Under the pieces are notes generated by a model. The model was not told the origin of the DNA and did no database searches. It saw only the letters and a program-made list of their open reading frames with translations. The position numbers were made by a program, and so were the translations under genes. From NCBI GenBank assembly GCA_963836075.1, contig CAWIIB010000003.1, positions 1 to 29,124 on the forward strand: a DNA stretch of 29,124 nucleotides, written 5' to 3'. Source of the stretch: an uncultured Acidobacteriota bacterium. Its GTDB lineage: Bacteria > Acidobacteriota > JAQAZP01. Of this stretch, positions 1 through 26,250 are shown piece by piece; the stretch's first letter is position 1; every line of letters begins with the position of its first letter.

Positions 1-26
1 TGTATTCAGGGACTCATTGTCCTCAT

Positions 27-56
27 TTGATGAAACCCAAACGGGCACCATATCGT
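27..56 (+). promoter_or_regulatory. Possible sigma70-type promoter of the export operon
   Basis: TTGATG (27-32), 18-nt spacer, TATCGT (51-56), upstream of the GAGAGGA RBS and ATG 114. Weak match to consensus. Confidence 0.3.
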
Positions 57-113
57 AAAATAAAGGACTTCCCCGCCGTTTACCGGGGAAAAAACCCAGG
101 GAGAGGATTGCTT

Positions 114-999
114 ATGACTATCACCATCCGGGACCTGAGCAAGACCTACAAGGGCGGCGTTACCGCCCTCGAAGGGGTGAACCTGGAGATCCCCGCCCGC
201 ATGTTCGGCCTGCTCGGCCCCAACGGGGCCGGCAAGACCACGATGATAAAGATCCTTCTCACGCTGCTCCAGCCGACCTCCGGCGAAGTGAATATCGCGG
301 TGCTCGACGTGTCCAAAGACCGGCGGAAGATCCGTTCCCGGCTGGGCTACCTGCCCCAGGAGTTCGGCATCTACCCCAAGATGCGGGCCGGGAGTTTCTC
401 GACTTCATCGCCCGGCTGCAACGGCATGCTGAAGAGCGAGCGCGACCGGCGGGTGGACGAGATGCTGGAAAAGGTGGGGCTGGCCGACGCCGCGCGGCGC
501 AAGGTCAAGGCGCTCTCCGGCGGCATGCTGCGGCGGCTGGGCATCGCCCAGGCGCTGATCGGCGACCCCAACTGCTCATCGTCGACGAGCCCACCGTGGG
601 CCTCGATCCCGAGGAGCGGATCCGTTTCCGCGGGCTGCTCCCCGACATCGGCAGGAGATCGTGATCATCCTCTCCACCCACATCGTGGGCGACATCTCCA
701 GCGCCTGCGAAAACCTGGTGATCCTGGACAAGGGGAAGGTGCGCTACCGCGGCTCGCCGCCGGAACTGACGGCGAAGGCCGAGGGCAAGGCCTGGGAGAC
801 GGTGGCCCTGGAAAAGGACCTGCCGGCGATCAAGCAGCACTTCAGCGTGATCAGCACCGCCCCGCGCGGCGACCGGCTGCACCTCCGGCTGGTGGGCGAG
901 GGATCGGCCCCGGGCGTGGAACTGAAACCGGTAAAACCGAACCTGGAGGACGCCTACATCAACTTCATGGGCGGACTGGAGGAGGAAAACAATGTTTGA
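114..999 (+). CDS. ABC transporter ATP-binding protein (ABC-2/DrrA-like NBD), frameshifted in this assembly
   Basis: MTITIRDLSKTYKGG start, Walker A GPNGAGKT, Q-loop YLPQ, signature LSGGMLRR. Walker B/D-loop LLIVDEPTVGLDP reads in a shifted frame near 572-610. H-loop ILSTH and C-terminal PNLEDAY lie in ORF 661..999. Confidence 0.93.
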
Positions 1000-3900
1000 C
1001 CTCGCCGGAATCATGGGCCTGGCCAAGTACGAGGGCCGGCTCCTCCGCCGCACCTGGAAGTTCTGGATCCTGGCCGTGCTGGTCTCCATCGTCCTCTCGG
1101 TGAATCAAGATCTACCAGGGCGCCATCGTCGATTTCCTCTCCAGTTTCTCGGGCAGCATGGGCGGCTTCTACTCGCCGGGGAACATCTTCCAGAGCACGT
1201 TCCTCTTCTACAACATCCTCTTCGCCATCCTGCTCATCTGGTTCTGCTACGATTTCATCTCGCGGGACCGGCAGGTCCGGGTGGACGGGGTGCTGCACTC
1301 CCGCCCCCCGAGCACCTTCAGCCTGGTCTGGGCAAGTTTTTCGGCACCTTCAATCCGGTGGCCTTCATCGCCATCGTGCTCATCCCGCTGGCCACGCTGT
1401 TCTTCTACCTGGTGGCGGCCATCCTGCATTCCTTCTTCCCCTTCCTGGTCTTCCGCACCTACTTCCCGGTGACCCCCTACCTGGTGCAGGTGTTCGTCAT
1501 CACCCTGCCCTCGCTGGCCTTCATCATCGCCCTGGTCTTCTTCCTGGCCACGGTGACCAAGAGCCGGGTGGCGGCGATCATCATCGCCCATGCCTACGTG
1601 CTCATCGACATGGTGGCCTTCCTGCTTTCGGCTACTGGCTGCGCATCGAGTACGTGCCCATCGTCGATTTCAGCGGGTACAGTGTCCTCTCCTTCTACTC
1701 CGACCTCTCCGGGTTTTCCGATCTGCACCTGGTGCTGCTGCACCGCGGCTACATCATCGGCCTGACCCTGCTGCTGCTGGCCCTCACCGCCATGTTCCAC
1801 CCCCGCCTGGCCCAGGCCGGCCGGGTGTCGCAGCCGGTGCGCCTCACCGCCATCATCTGCGCACTGCTCGGCGTCTTTTACGCGGGGTACGTGGTCACCA
1901 CCGGGCACCGCTCCATCGCCTCGCGCACCGCAGGCCATGGCCGAACAGGAAGCGCTGGTGGAGCGGCCGCTGACCACGGTGACCCATTTCGACATGGACG
2001 TGGACCTGACCCGGGCGCACCACATCGCCGCCGAGGCGACGATGAGGGTGCGCAACGAAACCGACCAGCCCCAGGAGCTGCTGACCTTCGTCCTGAACAG
2101 CGGCCTCGAGGTGGACGAAGTGACCGGCCCCGGGGGCGAAGCACTGGAATTCGAGCGCGAACTGACGGTGCTTACGGTGCACATCCCAACCCTGGACCCG
2201 GGGGCCGAATCGGAGATCCGCGTGGCCTGGCAGGGCGGCATCCAGACCCCCACCCTGTTCCTGAACAGCACGCTGGAAATCAACGAACTGAAGGGCAACC
2301 AGCGGAACAACACCGCCATTCTCGGCGACCGGCCGGCGTTGATCACGCCCCGCTGCACCTACCTGGTGCCCCAGGTGCGCTGGTACCCGTCGCCCAACGT
2401 CGACTACGGCTACACCTACCCCGAAAAGAACGACGCCAACTACGCCACCACCGATGTTCGGATCTCAGTGCCCGAGGGCTGTTTCGCCATTTCCCAGGGG
2501 GAGCTGGCCGAGCGCAAACAGTCCGCCGGGAGCAGCACGCTGCACCACTACGTTTCCGATGTGCCGGTGCCCGGTATCTCGATCAACTCCGGCACCTACC
2601 AGGTGGTACGGGGCGAAATGGGCGGCATCACGACGAACCTCTACTACCTCGAAGCCCACGGGGAGAACATCGAGTTCTTCCGCTCCCTGTCCGACATCAT
2701 CCGCGAACAGGTGGAAGCCAAGCTGGAGGAGCTGAAGGAGACCACCGGCCTGGAATACCCCTACCCGGCGCTGAGCCTGGTGGAGGTGCCCGACTCCATG
2801 CGGGCCTATTCCGAGGGGTGGGACAGCCCCAACCCGCTGATCCAGCCCGGCGTGGTGATGCTCAAGGAATCGGGGTTCTTCAAGGCCAACTTCCAGTTCG
2901 GTTTCAACATCCGGTCCCGCAGCGCCCGGGAGGAAAGCGGGGACGAGGAACTGCCCACCGAGCGGGCCAACGAGATCAAGATGGAGATGCTGAAGACCTT
3001 CTTCGACCTCGACGTGCTCAGCGGCAACATGATCCAGAACGCCATGCAGAGCTTCTGGGGCTTCCAGGTCGACCCGGTGGGGCCGCTCTACCCGCTGGCC
3101 AGCCGGCGGCCTCGACAACTACATCAAGGAGATCGCCACCGAAAGCCGGCCGATGAGCTCGGTCTACTCGCTGATCAGCTTCAATGAAAACCAGCAGGGG
3201 ATGCCCGCGGCCATGTCGCAGGGCAAGTCGATCAGCGAGGCCGTGTTCGACACCATCTTCGACAAGAAGACCATCTACCCGGTGATCCTCGAGACGCCGC
3301 TGGCCGAGCTGGTGCCCGGGGACGACCCGGGGCTGTTCTACAAGGTGATGAGCTACAAGGGCCGGGGCTTCGTGGTCAGCCTGCGCGAGGCCATGGGGCA
3401 CGAGCACTTCCGCGCCATGATCATCGAGCTGCTGACCCGCTACCGCTACGGACACTACACCTTCGAAGACATGCGGCGGCTGGCCGAGGAGGTCAGCGGC
3501 GAGGACCTGGGCTGGTTCTTCGAGCAGTGGACCCACCGCACCGACCTCGCCGGGTACAAGGTGGTGGACCACGAGGCCTACCGCATCGAATCCGATGAGG
3601 AGATCCCCACCTACCAGGTGCGGCTGCAACTGGCCAACGAGGAAGCCACCGGCGGCTTCGTTATCGTCACCTTCCACACCCGGGAGGACGAGATCGAGAC
3701 GGCGGCTGAAGGTCAACGGCTACGAAACCGTGGAGGTGGCCCTGGTGGTGGCCGACGAGCCTCAGCGGGTGGTGGTGGACCCGATCCTGGCCCGCAACGA
3801 GGAGATGATCGAGAAGGAGTTCACCATTCCCGAGGAAGCGGTGGACGCCGAACCGGTGGAGCGGGTGGCCGTCATCGCCTCGGAACCGGCCGAGCAGCGC

Positions 3901-4443
3901 AAGGGACGTGATCGTCGACGACCTGGACCAGGGGTTCAGCCTCACCGGGACCGGCGGCGGCGGCCTGCTCCGCTGGCGTTCGGGGGAGGAGGGCGAGGAC
4001 GGGGAAGCGCCGGCCATCCCGGAGTACATCCGCGGTCTGCCCGACGAGTGGAACAACTGGACGCGCGACGAGGCATACGGTCTTTACAACCACACGATGA
4101 AGGTGAAGGGCGGCGGCGAGGGCGAGTTCTCGGCCCGCTGGGCCGCCGACCTGCCCCGCCGCGGCCGCTACGAGGTCTTCGTCTATATCGGCATCGAGGG
4201 GAAGACCTCCGCGTGCGCGATGAAGACGAAAGACTGGGCAGCAACTACCAATACACCATCGAGCACGAGGACGGCCCGGAGACGGTGACCTTCGACGCCA
4301 CCGGCGCGGAGGAGGGCTGGAACAGCCTCGGCACCTGGTACTTCTCGCCGGACAACGAGGCCGTGGTGCTGCTCAGCGACCAGGCCGACGGCGCGGTGAT
4401 CGCCGACGCGGTGAAGTTCAGCTACAACGAGAATGATGACTAG
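992..4443 (+). CDS. ABC-2-type permease fused to an M1 aminopeptidase-like domain (no HExxH) and a C-terminal golvesin/xanthan-lyase CBD-like beta domain; ~1150 aa after joining frames
   Basis: N-terminal LAKYEGRLLRR, several TM helices and ISRDRQVRVDGVLHSRP (ABC-2 permease motif). M1-like segments: WYP, YPYPALSLVEVP, SYKG..LREAMG.E.F, TFEDMRRLAEEVSGEDLGWFFEQW. C-terminal GWNSLGTWYF...VLLSDQADGAVIADAVKF. Pieces: 992..1765, 1158..1472, 1654.., 1937..3187, 3153.., 3595..4443, 3908..4288. Confidence 0.82.
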
Positions 4444-4452
4444 ATGAGCTAT

Positions 4453-4577
4453 CAAAACCTCAGCTGTGGTTCGAAAGCAAGGCGACGGTTGAGGAGAACG
4501 CGCAGCCCACTCACGATGGTATGTGAGCATTTCGACGAAGCCGTCAACGCAGCTATCGGATCTCGGATGAGGTTTTG
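4453..4577. repeat. Long imperfect palindromic intergenic element (structured RNA or MITE/REP-like)
   Basis: Terminal IR CAAAACCTCA (4453-4462) / TGAGGTTTTG (4568-4577). Nested stems GACGGTT/AGCCGTC and CTCAC/GTGAG. Confidence 0.6.
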
Positions 4578-4592
4578 CAAGGAGGCAACCGA

Positions 4593-5675
4593 ATGACCAC
4601 CAGATGCCCACAGGTCTCAATTGTCGCGGCGCTCTTCATCGTCCCGCTGCTCCTCGCCGCTGCGGGCTGCGGCGGCCAGGAGTCCACCGCCGGCCTGGAG
4701 GTGAAGATCCCGGTACGGGTGGAGGAGGCCGGGCGGGCCGACATCGCCGAATATCTCTCCACCACCGGCACGGTACGGGCGATCCAGGAGGTCAAGCTCG
4801 AGTCGCCGATGACCGGGTATCTGACCCTCGGGAAGCTGGGCGGCAACGGCCGGCGGCTGATCGAGGGTGACCCGGTGAAACAGGGACAGGTGGTCGCCCT
4901 GCTGGACAGCGAGGAGACGCGGGTCAACAAGAAGAGCGGCATCGACGCCCGCCGCGCCGAGCTGGAGAAGGCGCAGAGCGACTACGAGCGCTACAAGAAT
5001 CTCTACGACGAGGGATTCGTCTCCGAGCAGGAGATGAGGAACTACGAGAGCGCCCTGGCCACCGCGCAATACAACTACGACAACACGCTGATCGTCGAGG
5101 AGCAGACCAGGATCCTCGCCCCGATCTCCGGCCGGCTGACCTGGCTGATCCGCGATGTGGACGGGGCCAAGGTCACCGCCGGCGAGGAACTGGCCGAGGT
5201 GATGGACTTCTCCCAGGTGCTGGCCGACCTGGAGCTGCCCGGGGGCGACATCGCCCGGGTGGAGAAGGGGATGACGGTCAACATCACCAACTACGCCTAC
5301 CCCGACAAAGTGTTCGAGGGCAAGGTGCGCTACATCAGCTCCACCATCCAGGCCCAGTCCCGGACCTTCCGCGTGGAGGTGCTGCTGGCAAACAACGAGG
5401 GACTGGTGCGGCCGGGTATGTTCGTCAAGGCCGACATCGTCACCCGGGCCCGGACGCAGGCCCTGGTGCTGCCGCGGCACGCGGTGGTGATCCGCAACAA
5501 CCGGCCGTCGGTGTTCGTGGTCTCGCGGCAGAAGGCCGAGATGCGCGAGGTGGTCACCGGCCTCGAGGACGAGGACCGGGTGGAGATCCTCTCCGGCATC
5601 GAAGAGGGTGAGCGGGTGGTGGTCCAGGGCTACGAAACGCTCAAGGATAAGACACCGGTGAAGGTCAACTCCTGA
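4593..5675 (+). CDS. RND efflux periplasmic adaptor (membrane fusion protein), predicted lipoprotein
   Basis: GGAGG RBS at 4581-4585, lipobox-like LAAAGC, EGDPVKQGQVVALLD, helical hairpin, ILAPISG, SRTFRVEV, LVRPGMFV, VEILSGIEEGERVVVQG. ORF intact. Confidence 0.93.
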   Translation: MTTRCPQVSIVAALFIVPLLLAAAGCGGQESTAGLEVKIPVRVEEAGRADIAEYLSTTGTVRAIQEVKLESPMTGYLTLGKLGGNGRRLIEGDPVKQGQVVALLDSEETRVNKKSGIDARRAELEKAQSDYERYKNLYDEGFVSEQEMRNYESALATAQYNYDNTLIVEEQTRILAPISGRLTWLIRDVDGAKVTAGEELAEVMDFSQVLADLELPGGDIARVEKGMTVNITNYAYPDKVFEGKVRYISSTIQAQSRTFRVEVLLANNEGLVRPGMFVKADIVTRARTQALVLPRHAVVIRNNRPSVFVVSRQKAEMREVVTGLEDEDRVEILSGIEEGERVVVQGYETLKDKTPVKVNS

Positions 5676-8600
5676 TGAAAGCCATATCCAGCCTGGCGGT
5701 CCGTTTCCCGGTCACCGTGGTGATGATCTTCACCGGGGTGCTCCTGCTCGGCTACATCTCGCTGGACAAGCTGGGTATCGACCTGCTGCCCGACATCTCC
5801 AGCCCCAAGGTGGTGGTGGTGCTCGAGTCGGGGAACCGGCCGCCGCGGGAGATGGAGGACGTGTTCGGCGAGCAGCTGGAGTCCCAGCTGAGCACCATCA
5901 GCGGCGTCTCCCGGGTCTCGTCGGTCTCGCGGGTGGGCAGCATCATGGTCACGGTGGAGTTCTACTGGGACACCGACATGGACTTCGCCCTGCTCGAGGT
6001 GCAGAAGAACATCGGCTACCTCCAGGCGGACCGCGAGGTGGATGCCCTTTCCATCCGCCGCTTCGATCCCCAGGCCGCCCCGGTTCTGCGGGTGGGCATG
6101 TTCCCCGCGGGTGAAGAGCGACGCCGGGGCCGACCTGGACGAACTGCGGCGGCTGGCCGAAGACTATGTCCGACCGGCGCTGGAACGGCTGCGCGGCGTG
6201 GCCGCGGTGCGCATCTCCGGCGGCCGGGAGCGGGAGGTGATCATCGAGACCGACGAGTTTCTGCTCGACGCCATCGGCATCACCGTGGACGACGTGGCCA
6301 CCCGGGTGGCGGAGGCCAACATCGACAGCTCCGGCGGCACCCTCGAGGAAGACGGCAAAATCTACGTGATCAAGGGGGTGGGTCGGTTCACCGACCTGGA
6401 CCAGCTCCGCGCCCTCACCGTGGCCTACCTTGACCGGAGCAAGGCCCCCTCGGACCTGGTCTCCCAGAACACCGCCTTCGACCCGCTCAAGGTGCCGGTG
6501 CCCCTCTCCCGGGTGGCCCGGGTCTACTACGGGGACAAGGAGGTGCGCAACCTGGTGCGGATCAACGGTATCGAAGGTGTGGGCCTCTCGGTGCACAAGG
6601 AGGGCGGCAGCAACACGGTGACGGTGAGCGGCGACGTGCGCGACACCCTGGACCAGCTGAGCCGTTCGCTGCCCGGCGTGCGCTTCGAGGTGGTGCGCGA
6701 CCAGGCCCGCTTCATCACCGGCTCGATCCGCGAAGTGGAGGAGCAGGCGCTGATCGGCGCGCTGCTGGCCATCGTGATCCTCTTCCTCTTCCTGCGCAGC
6801 TTCGGCGCCACCCTGGTCATCGCCCTGGCCATCCCCCTCTCCATCATCGCCACCTTCGTGCTGATGTATTTCGCCGGGCTGAGCCTGAACATCATGACCC
6901 TCGGCGGCCTGGCCCTGGGAGTGGGCCTGCTGGTGGACAACGCCATCGTGGTGATCGAGAACATCTACCGCCACCTCCAGGCCGGCAAGGGCAAGATCGA
7001 GGCGGCCATCGACGGCGCGTCGGAAGTGGGCGGCGCGATCTTCGCCTCCACCTTGACCACCTGCGTGGTCTTCCTGCCCGTGGTCTTCATCGGCGACATC
7101 ACCGGCGAGCTTTTGAAAGAGCAGGCCTTCACGGTGAGCATCTCCCTGCTCTGCTCGCTGGTGGTGGCCATGGTGCTGATCCCCATGCTCGCCTCGCGGG
7201 TGCTGAAAAAGAAGCGGCTGCGGCGACGGATGGCGAGCACAAGGTGCGCAGCAGGGCGTACAACGGCCTGCTGGGCTGGGCGCTGAATCACAAGCTGATC
7301 GTGGTGGTGCTGACCCTGGTTCTTGGCCTGCTTGGCCGCCGAGGCCTTCCGGCGCAGCGGCACCGAGTTTCTGCCCCGGGCCGACCAGGGCGAGTTCGGC
7401 ATCCGGCTGGCGCTCCCCGAGGGGACGCTGGTGGAGCGGACCGCCGCGGTCTCCGGCTTCGTCGAGGACCTGCTGCTGTCGAATTTCGGCGACGAGATCA
7501 CCGCGGTGTACAGCGACATCGGCAAGCGGCGGCTGGAGGACGAGCTGCTCACCGAGGAGGTGTGGGACGAAAACACCGCGCTGGTCCTCGTTTCGCTGAA
7601 GCCGTTCAACCAGCGCGACCTGCACACCTCGGCGATCATCGGCGCCATCGACCCGGTGCTGCGCGACGTGCCCGACCTGGAGGCGACCTACAACCTCGGC
7701 GAGACCGCCCTGCAGCAGACCATCGGCTCCGGCGACGCGCCGGTGAGCATCGAGGTGCGGGGCCAGGACGTGGACCGGCTGCAGGAGATCAGCGACGGGG
7801 TGGCGGCCCAGCTGGCGGAAATGGGCGCCGCGGGCAAGGGGATCTACAACGTGCGCACCAGCTTCCAGGGCGGCCGCGAGGAGCTGGCGATCCACATCGA
7901 CCGGATGACCGCGGCCAGCCTGGGCCTCGACGTGACCTCCATCACCCGGTTGGTCAAGCGGAAGCTCTACGGCGAGGAGATCTCGATCTTCCGCGCCGAG
8001 GACGAGGACCGGGACATCTCGATCCGCCACCCGATGATGGACCTCAATCAGCTGCTCAACCTGGAGATCGAGAACCCCACCGGCACCCGGGTGCTGCTCA
8101 AGGACATCGCCCGGGTGGAGAGCGAGACCGGCCCGCGGGAAATCCTGCGCCGCGGCCAGTCCCGGGTGGGCCTGGTCCAGGCCGACCTGGCCGAGGGGGT
8201 GACGCTGAGCGAGGTGAGCGGCGAAATCGGCGAGCGCCTCGACGGGATGAACGTGCCGCGGGGCTACCGCTTCCTGGTGGGCGGCGAGGAGCTGCGGCGC
8301 CAGGAGTCTTTCGAGAAACTGCGCTTCGCCATGCTGCTGGCCCTCTTCCTGGTCTACATGGTGATGGCCTCGCAGTTCGAGTCGCTGGTCCACCCCTTCA
8401 CCATCATGCTCACCATCCCCATGGCCGGGATCGGCGTGGCCGCCTTCTTCTTCATCGCCGGGTTGCCGCTGTCGGTGATGGCCTTCATCGGCATCATCAT
8501 CCTCGCCGGCATCGCGGTGAACGACGGGATCATCCTCATCGACTTCGTCAATATCCTGCGCCGCCGGGGGATGAAGCGCCGTGAAGCGCTGCTGGCCGCC

Positions 8601-8825
8601 GGCCAGGCGAGGCTGCGGCCGATCCTGATGACCAGCTCCACCACCATCCTCGCCCTGCTGCCGCTGTCGCTGGGCTTTGGCGAGGGGGCCGAGCTGCGGG
8701 CGCCGCTGGCCTACGCCATCATCGGCGGGCTGGTCACCTCCACCATCCTGACCCTGGTGGTGCTGCCGGTGGCCTATGACCTGATCGACCGCCTGCGGCC
8801 CGCGGGGAGGGGGACGGACGCGTGA
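5675..8825 (+). CDS. RND permease subunit 1 (AcrB/MdtB-like), frameshifted
   Basis: AVRFPVTVVM, LGIDLLPDISSP, TM4 GLLVDNAIVVIENI, LASQFES-type motif (MASQFESLVHPF), GIAVNDGIILID, RLRPILMTS. Pieces 5675.., 6042.., 7323..8825. TGATG overlap with the adaptor gene. Confidence 0.93.
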
Positions 8826-11800
8826 ACCTCCCCACTTTCGCCATCAAGCGGCCGGTGACCACGGTGATGTTCTTCATCGCCCTGGGAGTGCTGGGCGTGA
8901 TCAGCTACACCACCCTGCCGGTGCAGCTGATGCCCAACTACATCTACCCCAAGATGTTCGTCTATGCCGGTTACCCCGGCGCCTCGCCGGAGAAGGTGGA
9001 GGAGGACCTGGTGGAGCGGCTTGAGGCCGAGATCGCCACCCTCGAGGACATCGAGGAGATCGAGGCCGACTCGAACCAGAACTACGGATTGATCACCGTC
9101 TCCTACAAGCTGGGCACCGACCTCAACTACGCCTATCTCAAGCTGGAGCAGAAGGTCAACGGCCTGATCGGCCTGCTGCCCGAAACCGCCACGCTCAGCG
9201 TGGAGCGCTTGGACACTTCGGCCTTCTCCAACTTCGTCATGCAGCTCAACGTGGCCGGGCCGGGGGGCCTGCCCTATATCCGCCGGCTGGCCGAGGAGAA
9301 GATCCAGCCCCGGCTGGAATCGGTGAACGGCGTGGTCAGCGTCCAGGTCTTCGGCGGGCAAAGACTGGGCGTGCAGGTGACCCTCGACGAGGACCGCCTG
9401 CGCTCCTACGGCATCATGCCGACCCAGGTGCTGGCCACCCTGAACGGCTTCCACCGGCGGCGGGAATTCGTCGGCGAGGTGGAGGTGGACGGGAAGCGCC
9501 AGTTCGCCATGGTGGAGGGGCGGTTCACCTCGCTGCAGGAGATCCGCGACCTGCCGTTGAATACCTTGGCAGCGGGACGATCTTCCTCCGCGACGTGGCC
9601 CGGGTGGAGGAGGCGGCGGACCGGCAGACCCAGGTCTCGCGGGTGGACGGCCACCCCACGGTGAGCGTGCTGATCCAGAAGGACGAGCAGTCGAACCTGA
9701 TCAAGGTGGCCCGTCTGCTGCGCCCGGAGATCGCGGCGATCAACGACGAGATGGCGCCCACCGGGGTGCGGGTCAGCACCGCCTTCGACAGCGCGGAGAT
9801 GATCGAGAAGGATATCGACCGGGTGAAAAAGCTGGCCCTGGGCGGCGGGCTGCTCGCCCTGCTGATGCTGCTGATCTTCCTCAGCGGCCCGCGCCGGTGC
9901 TGGTGGTCTCGCTGGCCATCCCGGTCTCGCTGCTGGTGACCTTCAACCTGATGGCCGCCTCGGGCCTGGCCATCGACGTGCTGACCCTGATCGGGTTGAC
10001 CCTCTCCATCGGCCTGCTGGTGGACAATGCCATCGTGGTGCTGGAGAGCATCACCCGGCACCGCGAGCGGGGCCAGCCGCGGATGGAGGCGGCGGTCACC
10101 GGCAGTTCCGAGGTGTTCAAGGCGATCATCGTCGGCACGGTGACCACCGTGGCGGTGTTCACGCCGCTGCTCTGGGTCAAGACCGAGTTCACCGAACTGT
10201 ACAACGACTTCGCCCTGGCCATCATCTTTCCCCTGCTGGTTTCGCTGCTGGTGGCGGTGACCCTGATCCCCATGCTGGCCAGCCGCCTGGGCCGGCGGGA
10301 CACGGGACGTAGACGTTCGACCCAGTCGAGGACCGCAAGCGGCCGCGGCGAGTGCTGCAGATCTACACCCTGCTGCTCAAGCAGCTGGCCCGGCACCAGG
10401 TGCTGACCACGGTCTCCTTCTTCGCCCTGCTGATGCTCACCGTGCTGGTCACCACCCCGATCATCCTCTTCCTCTTCGACGCCAGCCAGCCGCCCACCGA
10501 CCGCATCGAGATGAAGCTGGAACTGCCCGAGGGCACCGACCTGGAATCGACCCTGGCGGTCACCGCCCAGCTGGAGTCGCATGACCCTCGACCTGCCGGA
10601 CCGCAAGGTCACCAATTCCACCGTTCGCGAGGGCGAGGCCTTTGTCACCGTGGAGCTGCTGCCCGAGGACGAGCGGACCTCGGAGCAGTCGCTGGGCGCC
10701 ATCCGCCAGCGGCTCATCGACCGCACCCGGGAGCTGCGGGAGAGCAGCGCGGCCGACATCTACTTCGACCGCTCGCAGTTCCAGAGCGCGGCCGGGGGCG
10801 ATGACGGCGGCGGGGGCGCGCGCGGGAATGCTCGGCCTGACCCGCACCGAGGAGACGGTGGTGCTCACCGGCGAGGAGATGCCCCGGCTGGTGGACCTGG
10901 CCGGGGAGGTGGAATACCGGCTGAGGCAGATCGAAGGGGTGGACGGCGGCATCGATCCGCATGGACGTGGAGAAGGCCACCCCGGAGGTGCGGCTGGAAG
11001 CCCGCTACCGCGACCTGTCGGCCTGGGGGCTCTCCATGCGCCAGGTGATGGGCCTGCTCTGGATGGCCCGCCGGGACGGGGACCGGCTGACCTACCCCTA
11101 CCGCGACCGGCAGGACGACGAGATGCAGATCCAGGTCCGCCTGGGCGAGGAGGGGGAGTGGGGTTTCAGTGACCTGCGGGACCTCTCCATCCCCACGCCC
11201 AACGGCGAGTTCGTCCGGGTGGCGGAGCTGATGGACTTCCGCCGGGAGGCCGGCCTGCCCAGCCTCAAGCGCCACCAGGGGACCCACCGGATCCGCCTCT
11301 ACTACGGCTACGACGACCGAGGTGCTGGACACCCAGACCCGCCTCGACGAACTGCGCGGGACGTGGACGAGCTGCTGCTCGCCATCCCCCTGCCCCGGGG
11401 CTACACCCTGGCCGCGGAGCGGGAGGACGAGGAGACGAACGTCTGGAAGTTCATGCTCTACGTGGCGCTGATCCTGGTCTACATGATCCTCGCCGCTTCG
11501 TTCGAGTCGTTCAACCTGCCGCTGCTGATCCTCTTCACCATCCCCATGGCCCTGATCGGGGTGCTGATCCTGGTGGCGGTCACCGGGGTCGGCCTCGGTC
11601 CGCTGGTCTTTCTCGCCCTGCTGGTGCTGCTGGGCATGGTGGTGAACAACGGCATCCTGCTCATCGATTACGCCCGGCAGCTGGTGCGCAACAAGGGGTT
11701 CCGCCCCGAACGGGCGATCATCGCCTCGGGCCGGGCCCGCTTCCGCCCGGTGATCATGACCGCCACCACCACCATGGTGGGCATGCTGCCGCTGGCCATG

Positions 11801-13595
11801 CGCATGGGCGGCGAGAACGAGATCTGGCCCCCCTTCGCCATCGCGGTGATCGGCGGCATGGCCACCGCCACCGTGGGCACCCTGCTGCTGATCCCCATGG
11901 GCTTCCTCTCCTTCCGCCACATCGGTCTCTGGATCCGGAAGACCCTGGGCCTGCCCTGGGCCCTGGCCGGCACGCTGCTCGCCGCCGTGGCGATCTGGGC
12001 GCTCTACTTCCAGCTGGGCTGGGTCACCTCCGAGGTCTGGCGGATCATCTTCCTCCTGCCCCTCTGGTTCGCCGGTCTGGGCCTGGTGCGCTTCGGCCTC
12101 TGGCTGGCCCGGGGCAAAGAGCGGCGGGAAATCTTCAGCACCGACGAGACGCTGGACATCAGCGTGCGGGAGCTGAAGAAGATCTACGGTGAGGACGGCC
12201 CGTTCCTCCGCGGCTGGAAACAGAACGCCCGCTGGCTGAAGCACGCCCGGCAGCGGGGCATGCGGCTGAACAACCGCGGCCGGCTGGCCCAGGACCTGAT
12301 CTGGAAGGTGCCCGTGCTGGGCCTGCTCTTCTACCTGCTGACCTATTTCGAGAACCGCCTCTGGCTCTTCATCTTCATCGGCATCACCTGGTATTTCGTG
12401 CGCGACTTCCTGGTCACCATGGCCGCCCTGTGGCGCTTTCGCAAGGGTGTCGAACCAGCCGCCGGCACGCCGGTCCGCTTCTCCGAAACCCGCTGGCTGA
12501 ACCTGCTCTTCGGCCTCTCCCTGGCCGTCATGGCCCTGGTCCAGGCCCACGTATCCTGTGAGTTGAACTACGTGCTTCACCATCACCCTCACCTCCCTGC
12601 TGGGCCTGGGGACCCTGGCCCTGCGCACCGGGGCCAGGCTGCGGCGGGGTGAACTGAGCACCGAAGGGCGAGGGGGAAACATCTTCAAGCGGATCGCCCG
12701 CAGCTGGCGGCGGCTGGTGGCCGCCATCCCCCGGGTGGGCCGGGACAAGGAGCGGGTGGCCGCGCTGCGCGGGCTGTCGCTGGACATCGGCGCCGGCATG
12801 TTCGGCCTGCTGGGCCCCAACGGCGCGGGCAAGACCACCCTGATGCGGGTGATCTGCAACATCTACGAGCAGAGCCGCGGCACGGTGTCGATCAGCGGCC
12901 GCGACCCGCGGGAGCACCGGGACGCGGTGCAGAGCCTGGTGGGCTACCTGCCGCAGAATTTCGGGGTCTACGAGAACTTCACCGCCTGGGAGCTGCTCAA
13001 CTACTACGCCCTGCTCAACGAGATCTATGACCGGGAGGAGCGGGAGAAGCTGGTCACCAGCGTGCTCAATCGTGTGGCCCTCTTCGAGCGGAAGGACGAG
13101 AAGCTGAAGGGCTACTCCGGGGGGATGAAGCAGCGGGTGGGCATCGCCACCGCGCTGCTGCACCTGCCGCGGATCATCGTGGTGGACGAGCCCACCGCCG
13201 GCCTCGATCCCAAGGAACGGATCCGCTTCCGCAACCTGCTGGCCGAGCTGGCCAAGGAGCGGATCGTCATCTTCTCCACCCACATCGTCGAGGACATCTC
13301 CGGCACCTGCAACCGGGTGGCGGTGATGGACAAGGGCCGGGTGATCTTCGACGGCACCGTGGAGGAGATGATCGACCGCACCCGGGGCAAGGTCTTCGAG
13401 GCGGTGACCGAGGAGCAGCAGCTGACCGAGCTGTCCAAACGGCTCAAGGTGGTCAACCACATCGGCGAGGGATTCGACAAGATCCGGCTGCGCTTCCTGG
13501 CCGACGGCCCGCCCGCGGACCTGGAAGCCGAGGACGCGGAGCCGAACCTCGAGGACGCCTATCTCTACCTGCGCGGCGGGACCGCGCCGGTATAG
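8822..13595 (+). CDS. RND permease subunit 2 fused to extra TM helices and a C-terminal ABC ATPase domain; ~1590 aa after joining frames
   Basis: AIKRPVTTVM, TM4 GLLVDNAIVVLESI, ASFESFNLP, GMVVNNGILLIDY, RFRPVIMT. The frame continues past RND TM12 through extra TMs. One indel near 12575 joins it to the NBD ([43 protein letters not shown]). No RBS or ATG precedes the NBD. Confidence 0.85.
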
Positions 13596-13600
13596 GGGGC

Positions 13601-13668
13601 CAGGCCATATTGCTCGCAGCGAAGGTCGACTTCGTCTCCAGACGTCGCTCAGGAGCAACATCGGCCTG
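13601..13668. repeat. Intergenic REP-like long hairpin
   Basis: CAGGCC-ATATTGCTC..AGCGA (13601-13622) pairs with TCGCT..GAGCAACAT-GGCCTG (13645-13668). Inner GACTTCGTC mini-hairpin. Confidence 0.6.
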
Positions 13669-13703
13669 ACCTGATTGGAGATTAAAGAGGAGTGAAGCGA
13701 ACG

Positions 13704-14421
13704 ATGGCGAAGAAGATGCGCGGAAGAATCGGATCGTGGCTGCTGCTCTTCCGGCTCTGCCTCAAGGTGACCTTCTCCACCCGCTACTGGTTCCTGCTGG
13801 TGGGCGGGCTGGTCTACTTCGTCATCATCTGGCTGATGCACGCCTTCGGGGACGAGCCCTACACCTCGCTGGAGGTGCTGAACATGATCCTCACCCCGCC
13901 CGGGGTCTTCCTCTCCATCCTGCTGGGCATGCAGCTGGTGCTCCAGGAACGGGAAACCGGGACCATCGAGGTGATGTTCGCCATCTCCCGCTCGCGCTAC
14001 CGGGTCTGGCTGCTCAAGGCACTGACCGTCTACATCGCCATCTTTGTCCTGCACCTGATGCTGGCCGTGCTGACCTAGATCTTCATCACCGACTTCCCCT
14101 TCCTGCCGGTGCTGCTGAACAGCATGGTCCCGGCGCTCTTCTTCGGCAACCTGACCATGCTCTTCACCATCCTCACCCGCTCCACCAACGGCGGGGCGCT
14201 GCTGGCCAGCATCGTCCTCGTCCTGATCTTCCTCTTCCAGGGCGGCTGGAACGACTCGATCATCTACCCCTTCCTCAACCTGCAGGAGCTGGCCCAGGAC
14301 CTGCCCAGCGAGGAATTCTTCCGCATTGCCATCGTCAACCGCCTGCTGGTGCTGGGCGTGGCCTTCTGCCCTGCTCGGCCTGGCCCTCCGCCGCACCAAC
14401 GCCCGCGAGCGGTTGTTGTAG
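13704..14421 (+). CDS. Small ABC-2-type permease (~6 TM), with an in-frame TAG at 14076-14078 and a 3' frameshift
   Basis: Hydrophobic helices and the QERETGTIEVMF motif typical of ABC-2 permeases. ORFs 13692..14078 and 14109.. share one frame. A shifted frame ends LLGLALRRTNARERLL* at 14421. Confidence 0.8.
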
Positions 14422-14463
14422 GAAACGGATGGCACCAGTTTACCAATTGAGGACAATCGGCAT

Positions 14464-14519
14464 AAGTAGGGACAGTCACTACTTTAACAATTAGACAAAA
14501 TTGGTAACTGTCCCTACTT
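14464..14519. repeat. Inverted repeat/REP-like hairpin after the export operon (possible terminator)
   Basis: Perfect 13-bp IR AAGTAGGGACAGT (14464-14476) / ACTGTCCCTACTT (14507-14519), extendable imperfectly to ~22 bp. Degenerate extra copy CAGTTTACCAATT near 14436-14448. Confidence 0.7.
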
Positions 14520-14678
14520 TCATCAACCACATTGATACACGTAGCTTTCACCAAAGGTGATGTCCACCGACTCCAACTATCACGAAAAAGTCCCCAACTC
14601 ATGCCGATACTTTACAAAGGGGCCCACGGGGCCTATATTGACAGGTGTGTCGACCACGCCCGAGGGCCAGAGGAGAGA

Positions 14679-15266
14679 ATGATGAGAAAAGCCAGACTGA
14701 CCGCCGCCGGAACCCTGTTTCTGCTCCTCCTTGCCCCCCTCACGTTGGGCACGATCCCGGCGCTGGCCTCCATGGACCCGGATATCGACCTGGCCTGGAT
14801 GACCGAAAAATCGATCGACATCGTTGCCGGCGAGATCGTCGATCAGCGCTGTGAACTGCGGGACGATATCCCCGGATTCAAGGAAGTGGTGATCACCGTC
14901 TTCACCGTGCGGGTCACTCACCGCTACAAGGGTGACCTGGCGGCAAACATGCTCACCGAGTTCGCCATTCTCGGCGGTGAATTCGCCGGTCAATCCTTTC
15001 AGGCCAGCGATATGCCGGTGGGACTGGGCGTGGGCGTCTCCGGAATCTTCTTCCTTCGCGACTGGCAGGGCCTTCGGGTCCCCGCGGCCTGGGAATTTGG
15101 CTGTGCCCTGCACAGCGACAGCGGCGGCCGCAAGGTCCGGACCCTGGGCCGGGAGATCGATGTGGCGACCCTGGAAAGTGAGATAAACGCCCTCCTGGAG
15201 ACTTCGAAAGTAGTCAGTCATTCACCCGAGATTCGCCTCGAACACGATATTTCTATCTTAAAATAA
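14679..15266 (+). CDS. Secreted hypothetical protein, OB-fold/TIMP-like domain of the kind often found N-terminal to bacterial matrixins (paralog 1)
   Basis: AGGAG RBS, signal peptide, pattern DLAWMTEKSIDIVAGEIV...VITVFTVRVTHRYKG...ILGGEFAG...DMPVGLGVG..GIFFL. Confidence 0.65.
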   Translation: MMRKARLTAAGTLFLLLLAPLTLGTIPALASMDPDIDLAWMTEKSIDIVAGEIVDQRCELRDDIPGFKEVVITVFTVRVTHRYKGDLAANMLTEFAILGGEFAGQSFQASDMPVGLGVGVSGIFFLRDWQGLRVPAAWEFGCALHSDSGGRKVRTLGREIDVATLESEINALLETSKVVSHSPEIRLEHDISILK

Positions 15267-15624
15267 ATATGCTTCAACTTGTCCTTATCTCTTTACATAA
15301 CTGCCCAAAAACCCTATATTTTTCTTGTTGAAGTTTGATTGTTGCAGGGAAATTCTGGCTGCAGGGCCCGCGTTTTTCCGACCACGGCCCACTCCTCCAG
15401 CAGCCGCACTTTCCTGAGTTGGCTGGTTGCAGCCTGACCAACAGCGTCCGGGTGTGCCCGGCAGGGGAATCTCGCTGTTCACCGTCGCCGCAATGGGGGT
15501 GGTGGGTTTCCTGTCAGCCGTTGCGGCATCCACTTTCCCGTTGTGTTGTATGTCTACAGGCTGCGAGGGCTGCGATCAATCAATATTGGTTGTGGGGTAA
15601 TTTGATTCCAAAAAGGAGGTTGTT

Positions 15625-16142
15625 GTGACCGGCAAAAAACTCATTTATTCCAGTATTCCTTCTCGGGACCTTCGTCCTGCTGGCGCTTGTGTCCACGCAC
15701 CAGGCGGCGGCGCTGACCGAGAAAGCGGACCTGTCCACCCTCACCGCCCGGGCGGACCAGATCGTCACCGGCGAAGTGGTGCGGACCGAATGCTTCGCCG
15801 TCGAGGACGGCAGGATCTACACCCGGGCCACAGTGGCCGTCACCGAGAACCTCAAGGGTGTCAAGAGCGCCGAGGTGGAAGTGGTCATCCCCGGCGGCAC
15901 CGTGGGTGAAACGACCATGCGGATGTCCGAGGCGCCCAGCTTCACCGAAGGTGAATCTGTGATCCTCTTCCTCAAGAACAGCGGAAACCGGCTGGCCGGC
16001 TGGTTCCAGGGCAAGTATGTGGTGGTGGACGGTATCGCCTACCAGTCTGCCCCCAGCTGCGGCACGCTGATCATGGAGGGCGGGCTGCCCGCCGACGAGC
16101 TGCTCCAGACACATCCGGACCGAAATTCTGGCCCAGCAGTAA
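15625..16142 (+). CDS. Secreted hypothetical protein, same OB/TIMP-like family (paralog 2), frameshifted
   Basis: AGGAGGT RBS with GTG 15625; signal peptide spans a frameshift. DLSTLTARADQIVTGEV...IYTRATVAVTENLKG...IPGGTVG...EAPSFTEGESVILFL. A shifted frame ends IRTEILAQQ* (TAA 16140-16142). Confidence 0.7.
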
Positions 16143-22873: not shown

Positions 22874-24143
22874 ATGAGTTCAGATCACGATACAAACGAC
22901 ACCCCGGGGACGATCAGCCCTGACCAGGCCAGCAACCTCTGGCAGCGTCTGCTGGGCGGGCACCGCGAGGAGATAAAACCGGAGAACAATCTCTGGGCGC
23001 ACTTTCTGCCCGAAGGGTGCCGCCGCTGCCTGCTGGGCGGCCGGCTTTGCCTCACCATCGGCGAACGCTGCCACAAGGACTGTTTCTACTGCTCGAACCC
23101 CATGGGTACCGACCTGATCCGGGCCGACGAATTCACCATCAACAGCGACGAGGACCTGCTCCGGCTGGTCCGTTTCAGCGACCCGGACGCGGTCTGCCTC
23201 ACCGGCGGCGAGCCGACGCTCTACATGGACCGGGCCGAACACTACGCCCGGCTGCTCCGCGAGGAGTGCGGCCCGGATTTCCACATCCAGTTCTTCACCG
23301 CCAACGCCGAGATGACCGAGGACCAGATGGCCCGGATGCACGGGGCCGGGGTGGACGAAATCCGCTGCCACCTCGCCTCGTACAAGGAGGCCCACCTGGT
23401 GGAGCGGGCCAGGGGGTATGACTGGACGGTGGCGGTGGAGATCCCCAGCCTGCCCATCGCCGACATCACCGACCGCATCGTGGACAAGGCCATCGAGCTG
23501 GGCGCCGAATTCGTCAACCTCCACGAACTGCTCTACTTCGACCATGAGGACTTCCAGCGGGTGGCCAAACGGACCAACCTCCAGCCTGGGGAGCCGTTGA
23601 GCCGCAAGATCCCCTTCGAGGCGGCCGCCGGAGAAGGTCTTCGGCACCGACATCCCGGCCCGCTTCGGCACCACCCTGCGCACCACCCTGGGCAGCAAGG
23701 AAAAAGCCCAGGCAATGATGCGCAAGACCCTGGAGACCCCGGGCAGCAAGACCGCGGTCCACTTCTGCAGCATGGCCAGCAAGTATCTGACCCAGATCCC
23801 CAACCGGCTGGCCCGCAAGGCGCGCCGGCTCAAGCGGCCCTACGAGGATATCTCCCCGGACGGCACCCTGGTCTCGGCGATCATCCGCACCCCGGACGAG
23901 CAGACCACGGCCCTGGTCCTGGAACGGCTGGCCACCCAGTTCCGGTGGAGGGCGACAAGGTGGAGCAGGGGGACAACCTGCTGATGGTTCCCTGGACGGT
24001 GGCGCTGAAAAAAGAGCGCGTTCGGCGAACTGGCCGAACGAGCTGGAGATCAGCCTCTACGAACGATACCCGGTTCCCGGTGACGCGAAGATGAGTGACG
24101 ACGGGATGTATATCGTCTTCCCCCCGGCCCCGACGCGGAGTGA
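22874..24143 (+). CDS. Radical SAM protein resembling the mainly archaeal COG2108 family (PFL-activase-related), frameshifted
   Basis: LPEGCRRCLLG upstream of the CxxxCxxC motif (CHKDCFYC), TGGEP, GVDEIRCH, VEIPSLP, FVNLHEL, VHFCS..K...QIPNRL. The 3' end is uncertain; probably TGA 24141-24143. Confidence 0.8.
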
Positions 24144-24146
24144 TCA

Positions 24147-26250
24147 ATGAAGAGCGAAACCATTTCCCTGGCCGGCACGGAGATCACCCTGGAAACCGGG
24201 CAATCGCCCGGCAGGCCGACGCCGCGGTGATCGTCCGCCAGGGGGAGACGATGGTCCTGGCCACGGTGGTGGGGGCCCGCAAGGCCCGCGAAGGGATCGA
24301 TTTTTTCCCCCTCACCGTGGACTACCGCGAAGGCAAGTGGGCCGCGGGCAAGTTTCCCGGCGGCTTCCTCAAGCGCGAGGCCCGGTCCACCGACCACGAG
24401 GTCCTGGCCTGCCGGCTGGCCGACCGTTCGATCCGGCCCCTCTTCCCCGACGGCTACCGCAATGAAACCCAGGTGATCTGCACCACCCTGAGCTGCGGCC
24501 CGGACATCGATCCCTCGGTGCTGAATCTGCTCGGGCGTGCCCCTGGCCCTGCACATCTCGGACATCCCCTGGAACGGCCCGGCCGCCGGCATCCGGGTGG
24601 CCCGGGTGGACGGCAACCTGGTGGTCAACCCGCTGCAGAGCCAGCGGGCGCGGGCCGACCTGGAACTGGTGGTCACCTCCGGGCCCGAGGGGCTGTCCAT
24701 GGTGGAGGGCGAGGCCCGGGAGGTGCCCGAGGCGGAAGTGGCCCAGGCGCTCTTCTTCGCCCAGGACGCGGTGGCCCCGGCCCTGGAGATGATGAACCGC
24801 TGGCGCGAGGAAGTGGGACGGGAGAAGCGGGCCTTCGAGCCTCCGGAGGTGAACGAGGAACTGGCCGACGAGCTGGAGCAAGCTGGCCGCGGCACCGCTC
24901 AGGGAAGCGGTCTGCACACCGGTGAAGCAGGAGCGGGGCCGGGCCGTGGAGCAGGTGCGCGAGGAAGCGCTGGCCGCCCTCTGCCCCGACGGCGACCCGC
25001 AGCGCACCGCCGAAGCTGGCCTCGCTGTTCAGCGAGCTGCACCACCAGGTGGTGCGCCGGATGATCGCCAGGGAGGGCGTGCGGATCGACGGCAGGCCGC
25101 TGGACCAGGTGCGGCCGATCAACTGCCAGGTGGGCTGGCTGCCGCGGACCCACGGCTCGGCCGTCTTCACCCGGGGCGAAACCCAGGCCCTGGTCATCAC
25201 CACCCTGGGCACCACCAGGGACCGGCAGCTGGTGGAGACGCTGTTCGGCGAGGAGCACCACAGCTTCCTGCTGCACTACAACTTCCCGCCGTACAGCGTG
25301 GGCGAGACCCGCCCGGTCCGCGGGCCCGGGACGGCGGGAGATCGGCCACGGCAACCTGGCCCGCCGGGCGCTCCAGCCGGTGCTGCCGCGACGAGGACGC
25401 CTTCCCCTACGCCATCCGCGTGGTCTCCGAGATCAGCGAATCCAACGGCTCCTCCTCCATGGCCTCGGTCTGCGGCGGCTGCCTGGCCCTGATGGACGCC
25501 GGCGTGCCGATCTCCAGCCCGGTGGCCGGCATCGCCATGGGCCTGATCCAGGAGGACGGGGAGATCCACGTGCTCACCGACATCCTCGGCGACGAGGACC
25601 ACCTGGGCGACATGGACTTCAAGGTCACCGGCACCGAGACCGGGGTCACCGCCCTGCAGATGGACAACAAGGTGGGCGGTCTGGACCGCGGCGATCCTCG
25701 ACCGGGCGCTGACCCAGGCCCGCACCGCCCGGCTGCACATCCTGGCCGAGATGGCCAAGGCGCTCACCGGCCCCCGGGAGCAGCTCTCGGACAACGCCCC
25801 GCGGGTGATGTCCCACCGGATCAACCCCGCGCGGATCAGGGACCTGATCGGCAAGGGGGGCAAGACGATCCAGGAGATCCAGGAGACCTACAAGGCCAAG
25901 ATCGACATCTCCGACGACGGCCTGGTCCGGCTCTATGCCGAGGACGGCGTCCTGGGCAGCCAGGCCATGGCCCGGATCCGCCGGATCACCGACGACCCGG
26001 AGGTGGGCAAGGTCTACCGGGGCGAAGTGGTTTCGGTGAAGGATTTCGGCGCCTTTGTCCGGATCATGGACAGCACCGAGGGGCTGGTCCACATCTCGGA
26101 ACTGGACACGGACCGGGTGGACCGGACTCGGACGTGGTTCGTGAGGGGGAAAAAATCCTGGTGCGGGTGCTGGGGGTGGACGACCGGGGCAAGCTGAAGC
26201 TCTCCCGCCGCGATGCCCTGGGGGTCAGCGAAGCCGAAGTGGATGACTAG
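24147..26250 (+). CDS. pnp: Polyribonucleotide nucleotidyltransferase (PNPase), frameshifted
   Basis: [100 protein letters not shown] (LIGKGGKTI) and S1 ([15 protein letters not shown]). Confidence 0.95.

Follow-up and report, generated by a model that had tools for sequence, protein, structure and literature searches.

RND (resistance-nodulation-division) efflux pumps are regarded as powered by the proton gradient, and ABC (ATP-binding cassette) pumps by ATP. The permeases of the MdtB/MdtC type of tandem RND pump form an MdtB:MdtC heterotrimer of 2:1 stoichiometry. ATP-driven efflux through a periplasmic adaptor is a known principle from MacB (PMC2613632, PMC5985334). MacB has a contiguous N-terminal nucleotide-binding domain (NBD), four transmembrane (TM) helices, a periplasmic domain of its own and no RND domain. 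Here we analyse a stretch of 29,124 nucleotides from an uncultured Acidobacteriota bacterium, which is an entire 29-kb contig (C3) and which we call the window. Judged by its sequence, the region 8822-13595 of the window is a frame-broken copy of a conserved ~1590-aa protein, in which an AcrB-like RND permease is followed by extra TM helices and an ABC ATPase. Structure models of intact family members suggest that the ATPase is a split domain, the first beta-strand of which is displaced upstream and appears to fold back into the ATPase sheet, a reading to which we assign a probability of about 0.8. If the strand refolds into the sheet, the ATPase is complete, although its chain makes four membrane crossings on the way from strand 1 to strand 2.

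From beta2 on, the fused core is a normal NBD of the class that includes DrrA, GldA, NosF and the ABCA proteins (type V exporters). The best curated profiles for it were GldA (3.8e-51) and DrrA (4.9e-50), all below the family cutoffs, the best sequence matches in the PDB were ABCA4/7/1, 1vpl and NosF, and the best folds found by Foldseek were 4yer (TMt 0.77-0.79), 1vpl (0.82) and NosF, with an overall TMt of 0.65-0.82. Unlike in NBDs of the DrrA/GldA type, beta1 lies ~190-310 residues upstream instead of ~27, four TM helices stand in between, and the whole is fused behind an RND permease. The site of the insertion resembles that of the regulatory insertion of CFTR and of the loops of ABCG2/G5/G8, all of which fall between NBD strands 1 and 2, a likeness of position and not of shared descent. 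Published lengths of the beta1-beta2 loop are ~20 aa for ABCG2, 20 for ABCG5 and 40 for ABCG8, and the only other loop on record for this site is the CFTR insertion (PMC5065228). Whereas the CFTR and ABCG loops are mobile, soluble and tens of residues long, the insert in the fused ATPase has ~190 aa, is ordered in the models and makes four membrane crossings.

As in MdtB/MdtC-type pumps, two RND genes stand behind an adaptor gene, and the MdtC and MdtB/MuxB profiles match below cutoff; unlike those pumps, the second permease carries a ~560-aa C-terminal extension with six TM helices and the ATPase, and the positions of D408 and K940 are both Asn. The locus shares with MacB-type tripartite pumps an ABC ATPase encoded with a periplasmic adaptor, but the periplasmic part of the fusion is that of a whole AcrB-like permease, and its NBD is C-terminal and split. 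In a full-text literature search that covered few of the subscription journals, no paper turned up on a fusion of RND and ABC parts or on an NBD with membrane helices inside it.

The elements of the split ATPase in the window are listed below, with residue numbers from the AlphaFold2 model of the intact paralog (residues 1030-1588) in brackets.

11945-12010, plus strand: extra TM helix 13, the first after the RND domain (helix 13-33; hydropathy peak)
12035-12109, plus strand: extra TM helix 14, by which the chain would return to the cytoplasm (helix 40-73; hydropathy)
12152-12190, plus strand: putative displaced first beta-strand with an L.K.Y (A-loop-type) motif, LDISVRELKKIYG (strand 82-91; 64-73 in P0143)
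12203-12259, plus strand: basic amphipathic helix after the strand (helix 96-113)
12296-12349, plus strand: inserted TM helix 15 (helix 121-144; family hydropathy peak 131-142)
12359-12433, plus strand: inserted TM helix 16 (helix 148-176; family hydropathy peak 150-163)
12494-12559, plus strand: inserted TM helix 17, the last element in frame 2 (helix 193-215; family hydropathy peak 201-209)
12575, plus strand: frame break, one extra base relative to the paralog and to related public contigs (alignment with the C9 paralog)
12576-12623, plus strand: inserted TM helix 18, in frame 0 (helix 219-243; family hydropathy peak 221-233)
12678-12719, plus strand: basic helix leading into the ATPase core (helix 256-269, then coil 270-280)
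12756-13595, plus strand: ABC ATPase core, beta2 through to the stop codon, catalytic motifs complete
12813-12836, plus strand: Walker A
12945-12956, plus strand: Q-loop
13113-13136, plus strand: signature
13173-13208, plus strand: Walker B and D-loop
13272-13286, plus strand: H-switch

An earlier note on this DNA had proposed that the fused ABC domain is split by a membrane insert after its first strand. Three-frame translation bore out the positions that it gave for LDISVRELKKIYG and for the ATPase-core string from 12756, its four hydrophobic segments do lie in between, and its gap of 565 nt between the first strand and beta2 is correct. Its further argument, that the first strand shares a frame with the RND domain, is right for the strand itself, but the ATPase and the fourth helix lie in another frame, and a base correction at ~12575 is needed to join them. 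The observation as a whole therefore stands in its strings and coordinates and fails as regards a single reading frame for the split domain in the window. The two further TM helices between the RND domain and the strand (11945-12010 and 12035-12109) had gone unmentioned.

The intact form of the protein is found in the same genome, on another contig, C9, where an uninterrupted 1588-codon gene (P0001) has the same layout as the window fusion. ACR_tran matches residues 5-1029 of its product (profile 3-1020 of 1021, E 1.1e-183) and ABC_tran residues 1314-1457 (8.1e-27), and the ~284 residues in between, 1030-1313, have no match to a Pfam family. From the N-terminus, the layout comprises an AcrB-like RND domain with 12 TM helices, two TM helices, the L.K.Y strand, a basic helix, four TM helices arranged as two hairpins, another basic helix and the ATPase from beta2.

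AlphaFold2 modelled P0001 residues 1030-1588, from an alignment of 47 rows, with a pLDDT (predicted local distance difference test) of 86.6 and a pTM (predicted template modelling score) of 0.77. The order of elements is helix 13-33, helix 40-73, strand 82-91, helices 96-113, 121-144, 148-176, 193-215, 219-243 and 256-269, coil 270-280, strands 281-291 and 294-299, and then a normal NBD. The same order was obtained for the database protein P0143 (539 aa, ~33% identical), with a pLDDT of 90.7, a pTM of 0.82 and the strand at 64-73. The motif is a 10-residue strand by DSSP in these models, the only strand outside the NBD (in that of P0001, the only one before residue 281), in a block with a pLDDT of 95-96, and the residues just before beta2 are coil in both. 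Since a DSSP strand needs a ladder, cannot pair with itself and has no other strand available outside the NBD, the partner of the motif strand must be a strand of the NBD.

A second line of evidence comes from docking in trans with ESMFold2, where residues 72-118 were offered to residues 268-559 and scored 0.84 (0.82, 0.84 and 0.84 in the single runs), against 0.01 for the best of three controls; two unrelated peptides of 48-49 aa scored 0.01 in this test. Of 80 solved complexes, 58 came up to the mark used for this score, as did 2 of 110 mismatched pairs, counts that are rough for the present case, in which our own alignment was used. The runs share at least 80% of their contacts, and the pLDDT of the partner is at least 57. 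The contacts of least predicted error pair residue 82 with 291 and 326, 85 with 288 and 323, and 88 with 284 and 321, which puts the docked strand antiparallel between NBD strands 281-291 and 321-326, a slot that we take to be the canonical place of beta1 in an NBD. The interface spans 279-293, 319-329 and 308-313, the last being the Walker A helix, and the conserved Tyr of the motif would be brought beside this helix; a beta1 strand with its A-loop aromatic beside Walker A is thus a feature of the models.

The motif itself is well conserved. Across 47 aligned homologs, down to ~30% identity, the Lys of L.K.Y is invariant and the Leu and Tyr are conserved in at least 90%, and the pattern I/L-x-I/V-x-x-L-x-K-I/V-Y-G/D is present in every row; a set of 13 sequences shows no variation at L1116, K1118, Y1120, R1128 and W1130 (P0001 numbering). 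The order Leu, Lys, aromatic residue and then Gly or Asp is presumably the beta1/A-loop pattern of ABC proteins, and the canonical ATPase that the window also carries reads L-S-K-T-Y-K-G-G at this place, followed directly by V-T-A-L-E-G-V. The Leu of the motif stands 27 residues before Walker A in that canonical ATPase, 213 residues before it in P0001, and 192-312 residues before it in all of 73 family loci described below, so that the contiguous beta1-beta2 hairpin, with the motif ~25-30 residues ahead of Walker A, is absent from the fused ATPase. Curated profiles of full-length ABC ATPases begin to align with the fused ATPase only at profile position 6-22, and therefore no local beta1 is matched. 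The rest of the domain carries the full set of ABC motifs (Walker A, Q-loop Gln, signature, Walker B with the catalytic Glu, D-loop and H-switch, window 12813-13286), and Walker A, Q347, SGGM.QR, VDEPT.GLD and H456 are invariant in the 47 homologs.

Family-mean hydropathy has six conserved peaks, two before the strand and four in the insert. The mean number of Lys plus Arg is 10.1, 2.3 and 8.7 in the loops predicted to be cytoplasmic and 0.2 in each of the three short outer loops, which obeys the positive-inside rule; the loop with 10.1 holds the basic amphipathic helix. The C-terminus of AcrB is cytoplasmic, and with 12+2+4 helices both the strand and the ATPase would come to lie in the cytoplasm. 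The expectations of the earlier note for the structure, the topology and the homologs were thus borne out, in that the motif strand, the sole strand outside the NBD in the AlphaFold2 models, pairs into the NBD sheet on docking, the inserted helices are even in number (four by the models and by hydropathy, with loop charges in keeping), and the motif, the loss of which in homologs had been named as a possible refutation, is conserved in the 47 sequences and precedes Walker A in 73 of 73 loci. Its idea of a membrane-anchoring bundle inside the NBD is supported as far as the insert is concerned; anchoring is one possible role among several.

Several points weigh against a split domain of this kind. 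The pairing of the strand in the AlphaFold2 models was deduced from its DSSP state and the absence of other strands, not from the coordinates, and the alignments are shallow, with 47 rows. Both AlphaFold2 and ESMFold2 know the NBD fold, and since many NBD structures have been solved, the docking score speaks for a likeness to beta1, perhaps one that the predictor has memorised, and does not prove binding. Profile comparison by hhalign between the six-helix region and the neighbouring permease gave a probability of 0.1%, which lends no support to an origin of the six helices by duplication of the permease, and Foldseek against the PDB matched only the ATPase part, with no membrane-domain match for the six helices. 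The window copy is broken at 12575 and at many other sites. ABC ATPases work in pairs, whereas AcrB-type pumps are trimeric, a mismatch in stoichiometry for a hybrid of the two. Lastly, a 36-aa peptide with the motif, from the paralog or from the window, had no match in NCBIfam, ABC profiles included, a result of little weight with a peptide too short for the HMMER filters. This last result would also suit a different view, in which the L.K.Y segment lies outside the ATPase, as an unrelated loop or the relic of a lost ATPase, and the NBD either lacks beta1 or uses the RLV..IP.VG segment before beta2. The residues before beta2 are indeed hydrophobic and show moderate conservation (P272 and G275 do not vary among 5 sequences), and fold predictors could put any amphipathic strand on a free sheet edge. 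Both AlphaFold2 models nevertheless have coil before beta2 and a confident strand at the motif, the two unrelated peptides did not dock, and the residues of the motif are presumably those of the ABC beta1/A-loop, as they are in the canonical ATPase of the window. We consider this view very improbable.

The nature of the six helices was sought in other ways. None of hhalign, Pfam and Foldseek identified them as an ABC-2-type membrane domain, and the ESM Atlas gave no usable match for residues 1035-1310. Alignments with ABCA4/7, Atm1 and MsbA did reach into the helices, with root mean square deviations above 21 Å, and were rejected as an explanation of them.

Returning to the split-domain reading and its state in the window, homology to the intact proteins leaves frame 2 after 12574 and resumes in frame 0 at 12576. 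Frame 2, in the open reading frame (ORF) 10961-12652, encodes the C-terminal RND helices, the first strand and three inserted helices, while frame 0 encodes the fourth helix (12576-12623) and, in ORF 12717-13595, the whole ATPase. With the strand in frame 2 and the ATPase in frame 0, the 565-nt gap between them is not divisible by three. In public sequencing runs, the extra base was missing at 12574/12575 in all four contigs that bridge the site (one from run X1, one from X2 and two from X4; run X3 had no cover at 12575), contigs which come from 88-95% relatives and not from the same strain. Going by these frames, a single chain with the whole split domain cannot be made from the window copy as assembled, and in the protein database the product of this copy stands as two proteins of 563 and 292 aa.

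Two observations from the public runs are given for completeness. One contig of run X1 (depth 5) agrees with the sequence on either side of the insert but jumps from 12187 to 12756 (568 bases), with 18 other letters between; the joint has just 21 letters on one side, is anecdotal and was not used as evidence, and probably comes from an ordinary ABC gene of another organism, with the motif and beta2 six codons apart. Shares of 0.08-0.24 in marine and other sediment metagenomes reflect relatives, and no claim about habitat is drawn from them.

The break at 12575 is one of many. From 8000 to 16000 the plus strand is a series of overlapping ORF pieces in differing frames, and tblastn of intact homologs places frame changes of the fusion gene near 9570, 9882, 10300, 10580, 10800, 10940 and 12575. 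The other genes are as follows.

4575-5675, plus strand: membrane-fusion (periplasmic adaptor) gene, first of the module (Pfam HlyD_D23 5.3e-24, HlyD_3)
5675-8825, plus strand: RND1, an AcrB-like permease with no fused part, its frame broken near 6080-6110 (first piece matched by Pfam ACR_tran)
8822-11944, plus strand: RND2, the AcrB-like permease part of the fusion, with at least 6 frame changes (tblastn of the paralog P0001 and of P0005)
13692-14450, plus strand: ABC-2-like membrane protein gene with an in-frame stop after 14078 (ORFs 13692-14078 and 14109-14450 in one frame)
114-1103, near 16660, 17933 and 24095-26250: other broken genes, namely the first ATPase gene, an M10 peptidase, a DEAD helicase and RNase PH

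The adaptor is 74-84% identical to those of the C9 and G002 loci, and tblastn of the intact C9 RND1 (1051 aa) matches the window in frame 2 and then in frame 3. The window is collinear with C9:1308000-1326000 of the same genome at ~75-96% amino-acid identity, and almost every gene in it is frame-broken or has an in-frame stop. With at least 7 frame changes in the fusion gene, breaks in the neighbouring genes, a stop in the permease and an intact copy at C9, so that function would not be lost, the window copy may be a dead, decaying duplicate of the C9 locus that makes nothing functional from 12152-12790. Breaks in every gene of a 29-kb contig also fit an error-rich, low-coverage assembly of a related strain, and the genome is rated 4.6% contaminated. 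Between the breaks the fusion gene retains 87-95% amino-acid identity to intact homologs, which is unlike free decay, and the extra base at 12575 is absent from the related public contigs, although these are not of the same strain. Taken together, we regard a dead copy as a real possibility, somewhat short of an even chance.

The family reaches well beyond this genome. A word-indexed search with P0001 residues 1030-1330 returned 13 proteins, 12 of them RND+ABC fusions (1452-1589 aa) and one a 921-aa piece; one member bears the database name 'AcrB / ABC-type ... ATPase subunit'. An exhaustive phmmer search of 1.84 billion representatives gave 994 matches at E ≤ 1e-3 and 43 at E ≤ 1e-10, including ~35 full-length representatives of 1550-1600 aa that span the linker. 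Seven of 41 genomes of the same phylum, our own included, match the whole linker, 6 of these in stop-free frames of ~1600-1830 codons. Scanning 185,579 species genomes with a single peptide pattern yielded 73 loci, a sample that is defined by motif and linker similarity and so tells of constancy within the family, not of frequency. Counted by hand, their labels are Latescibacter- names (39), Acidobacter- names (12), Gemmatimonad- names (7), KSB1 (2), Deferribacteres-labelled (2), Bacteroidota/Cytophagia (2), Caldithrix (1) and Zhuqueibacter (1), with 7 unlabelled. The fusion thus occurs in genomes of Latescibacterota, Acidobacteriota, Gemmatimonadota, KSB1 and Bacteroidota and in Calditrichota-like ones. 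All record labels found for these loci are those of metagenome-assembled genomes, and the family is concentrated in uncultured Latescibacterota.

All 64 frames that are uncut by contig ends have the family layout, with lengths of 1567-1941 codons. A full RND domain is present in the same frame in 64 of the 73 loci, in part in 8 and not at all in 1, mostly owing to contig-end cuts, and every uncut locus has it. Three database proteins, P0143 (539 aa), P0044 (526 aa) and P0027 (501 aa), cover no more than the two helices ahead of the strand, the strand itself, the four inserted ones and the ATPase; they may represent the module in free-standing form, or else gene calls that were cut short. Searching near relatives for shorter, split or free-standing forms turned up just a 420-aa fragment on a 1310-bp contig and the window's own two ORFs.

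The gene order is also conserved. At C9 and in four relatives it runs adaptor, RND1 (~1050 aa), RND2-helices-ATPase and a membrane protein, the last with 240-340 aa. Of the 65 loci with enough DNA upstream, 61 show RND1 there, and directly after the fusion 65 of 67 have a permease-like gene. The downstream membrane protein at C9 matches ABC2_membrane_2 with 29.7 bits (cutoff 27.2), whereas of the four distant ones two have sub-threshold matches and two have none. A DrrA/GldA-like ATPase next to the gene of an ABC-2 family membrane protein is the arrangement of ABC-2 (type V) systems. The fusion likewise has a full-length RND permease with 12 TM helices (ACR_tran; RND_permease_2 6.5e-162, below its cutoff of 1250 bits).

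We aligned RND1 and the fusions (21 sequences) with AcrB of E. coli, of which D407, D408, K940, R971 and T978 are, by the numbering and roles that we assume, the proton-relay residues. D407 and T978 are each kept in 21 of 21 and R971 in 19 of 21, while the positions of D408 and K940 are Asn in 21 of 21 each, in RND1 and fusions alike (window 5675-11944; L009 8196-16114), and the AcrB relay is thus incomplete in both. Position 941 is Asp in 5 of 5 RND1 proteins and Asn, Pro or Asp in the 16 fusions, and from these residues RND1 and RND2 may differ in proton coupling.

How such a protein would work can be proposed only tentatively. The six helices would keep the ATPase lying flat below the membrane, alongside the RND domain, by means of three tethers, one into the strand, one out of it and one into beta2. 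The strand with its conserved Tyr, the A-loop Tyr if the motif is so read, would be linked to helices 14 and 15, and movements of the membrane helices could then be directly coupled to the binding or hydrolysis of nucleotide. The ATPase would find its partner in the ABC-2-like membrane protein encoded just downstream, and the whole unit, together with RND1 and the adaptor, would form a hybrid efflux machine. For a membrane-tethered ATPase that has such a direct coupling role through its strand and helices in a hybrid efflux unit, we would put the odds somewhat below even.

The kept relay residues bear on another view of the ATPase, in which it is real but serves an RND pump driven by protons as its nucleotide sensor or its regulator and not as its motor, or in which helices and ATPase are an independent ABC half-transporter that is merely fused. 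With D407, T978 and mostly R971 present in RND1 and RND2, proton coupling may persist, and P0143, P0044 and P0027, which cover helices and ATPase only, could be free-standing forms of a half-transporter. Every catalytic residue for hydrolysis is invariant, which a pure sensor would not need, the full RND fusion is found in every uncut locus, and the near relatives provided only fragments and the window's own pieces as shorter forms. Either variant seems rather unlikely to us.

The same residues can be read in the opposite sense, since RND2 is without part of the AcrB relay (408 and 940 being Asn) and mostly without the Asp-941 that RND1 keeps. RND2 would then be driven or gated by its own ATPase, in an ATP-coupled RND pump where a trimer of two RND2 and one RND1 supplies the ATPase dimer. 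The binding of ATP would pull directly on the membrane domain through the strand between helices 14 and 15, and the ABC-2-like protein would dock below. We think such a pump unlikely.

The covalent joining of RND and ABC parts in a conserved protein suggests a hybrid way of energising or controlling efflux. A split ATPase, if real, would mean that four membrane crossings between the first and second strands are compatible with the ABC fold, and that the strand with the presumed adenine-stacking residue is mechanically tied to membrane helices, which would offer a direct handle on the coupling between membrane-domain motion and the binding of nucleotide. An ATP-coupled RND pump, if real, would be a transporter class that merges primary and secondary active transport. 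As regards annotation, the ATPase part appears truncated at its N-terminus to profile searches, and the family is named only by its two halves.

Two further features of the window adjoin the efflux module. Positions 3-3911 hold a second ABC ATPase gene, the canonical ABC-2-type one used above for comparison, which has two frame breaks; downstream of it are large ORFs with no Pfam match and one with a weak match to Peptidase_M1 (6.2e-06, below cutoff), and the region looks like an 'ABC permease / M1 aminopeptidase-like' system beside the efflux module. On the other side, a conserved protein of ~214-244 aa follows the permease in both copies (window 14532-15266; L009 6565-7209, 70% identity); it belongs to no Pfam family and precedes an M10 metallopeptidase with a PPC domain.

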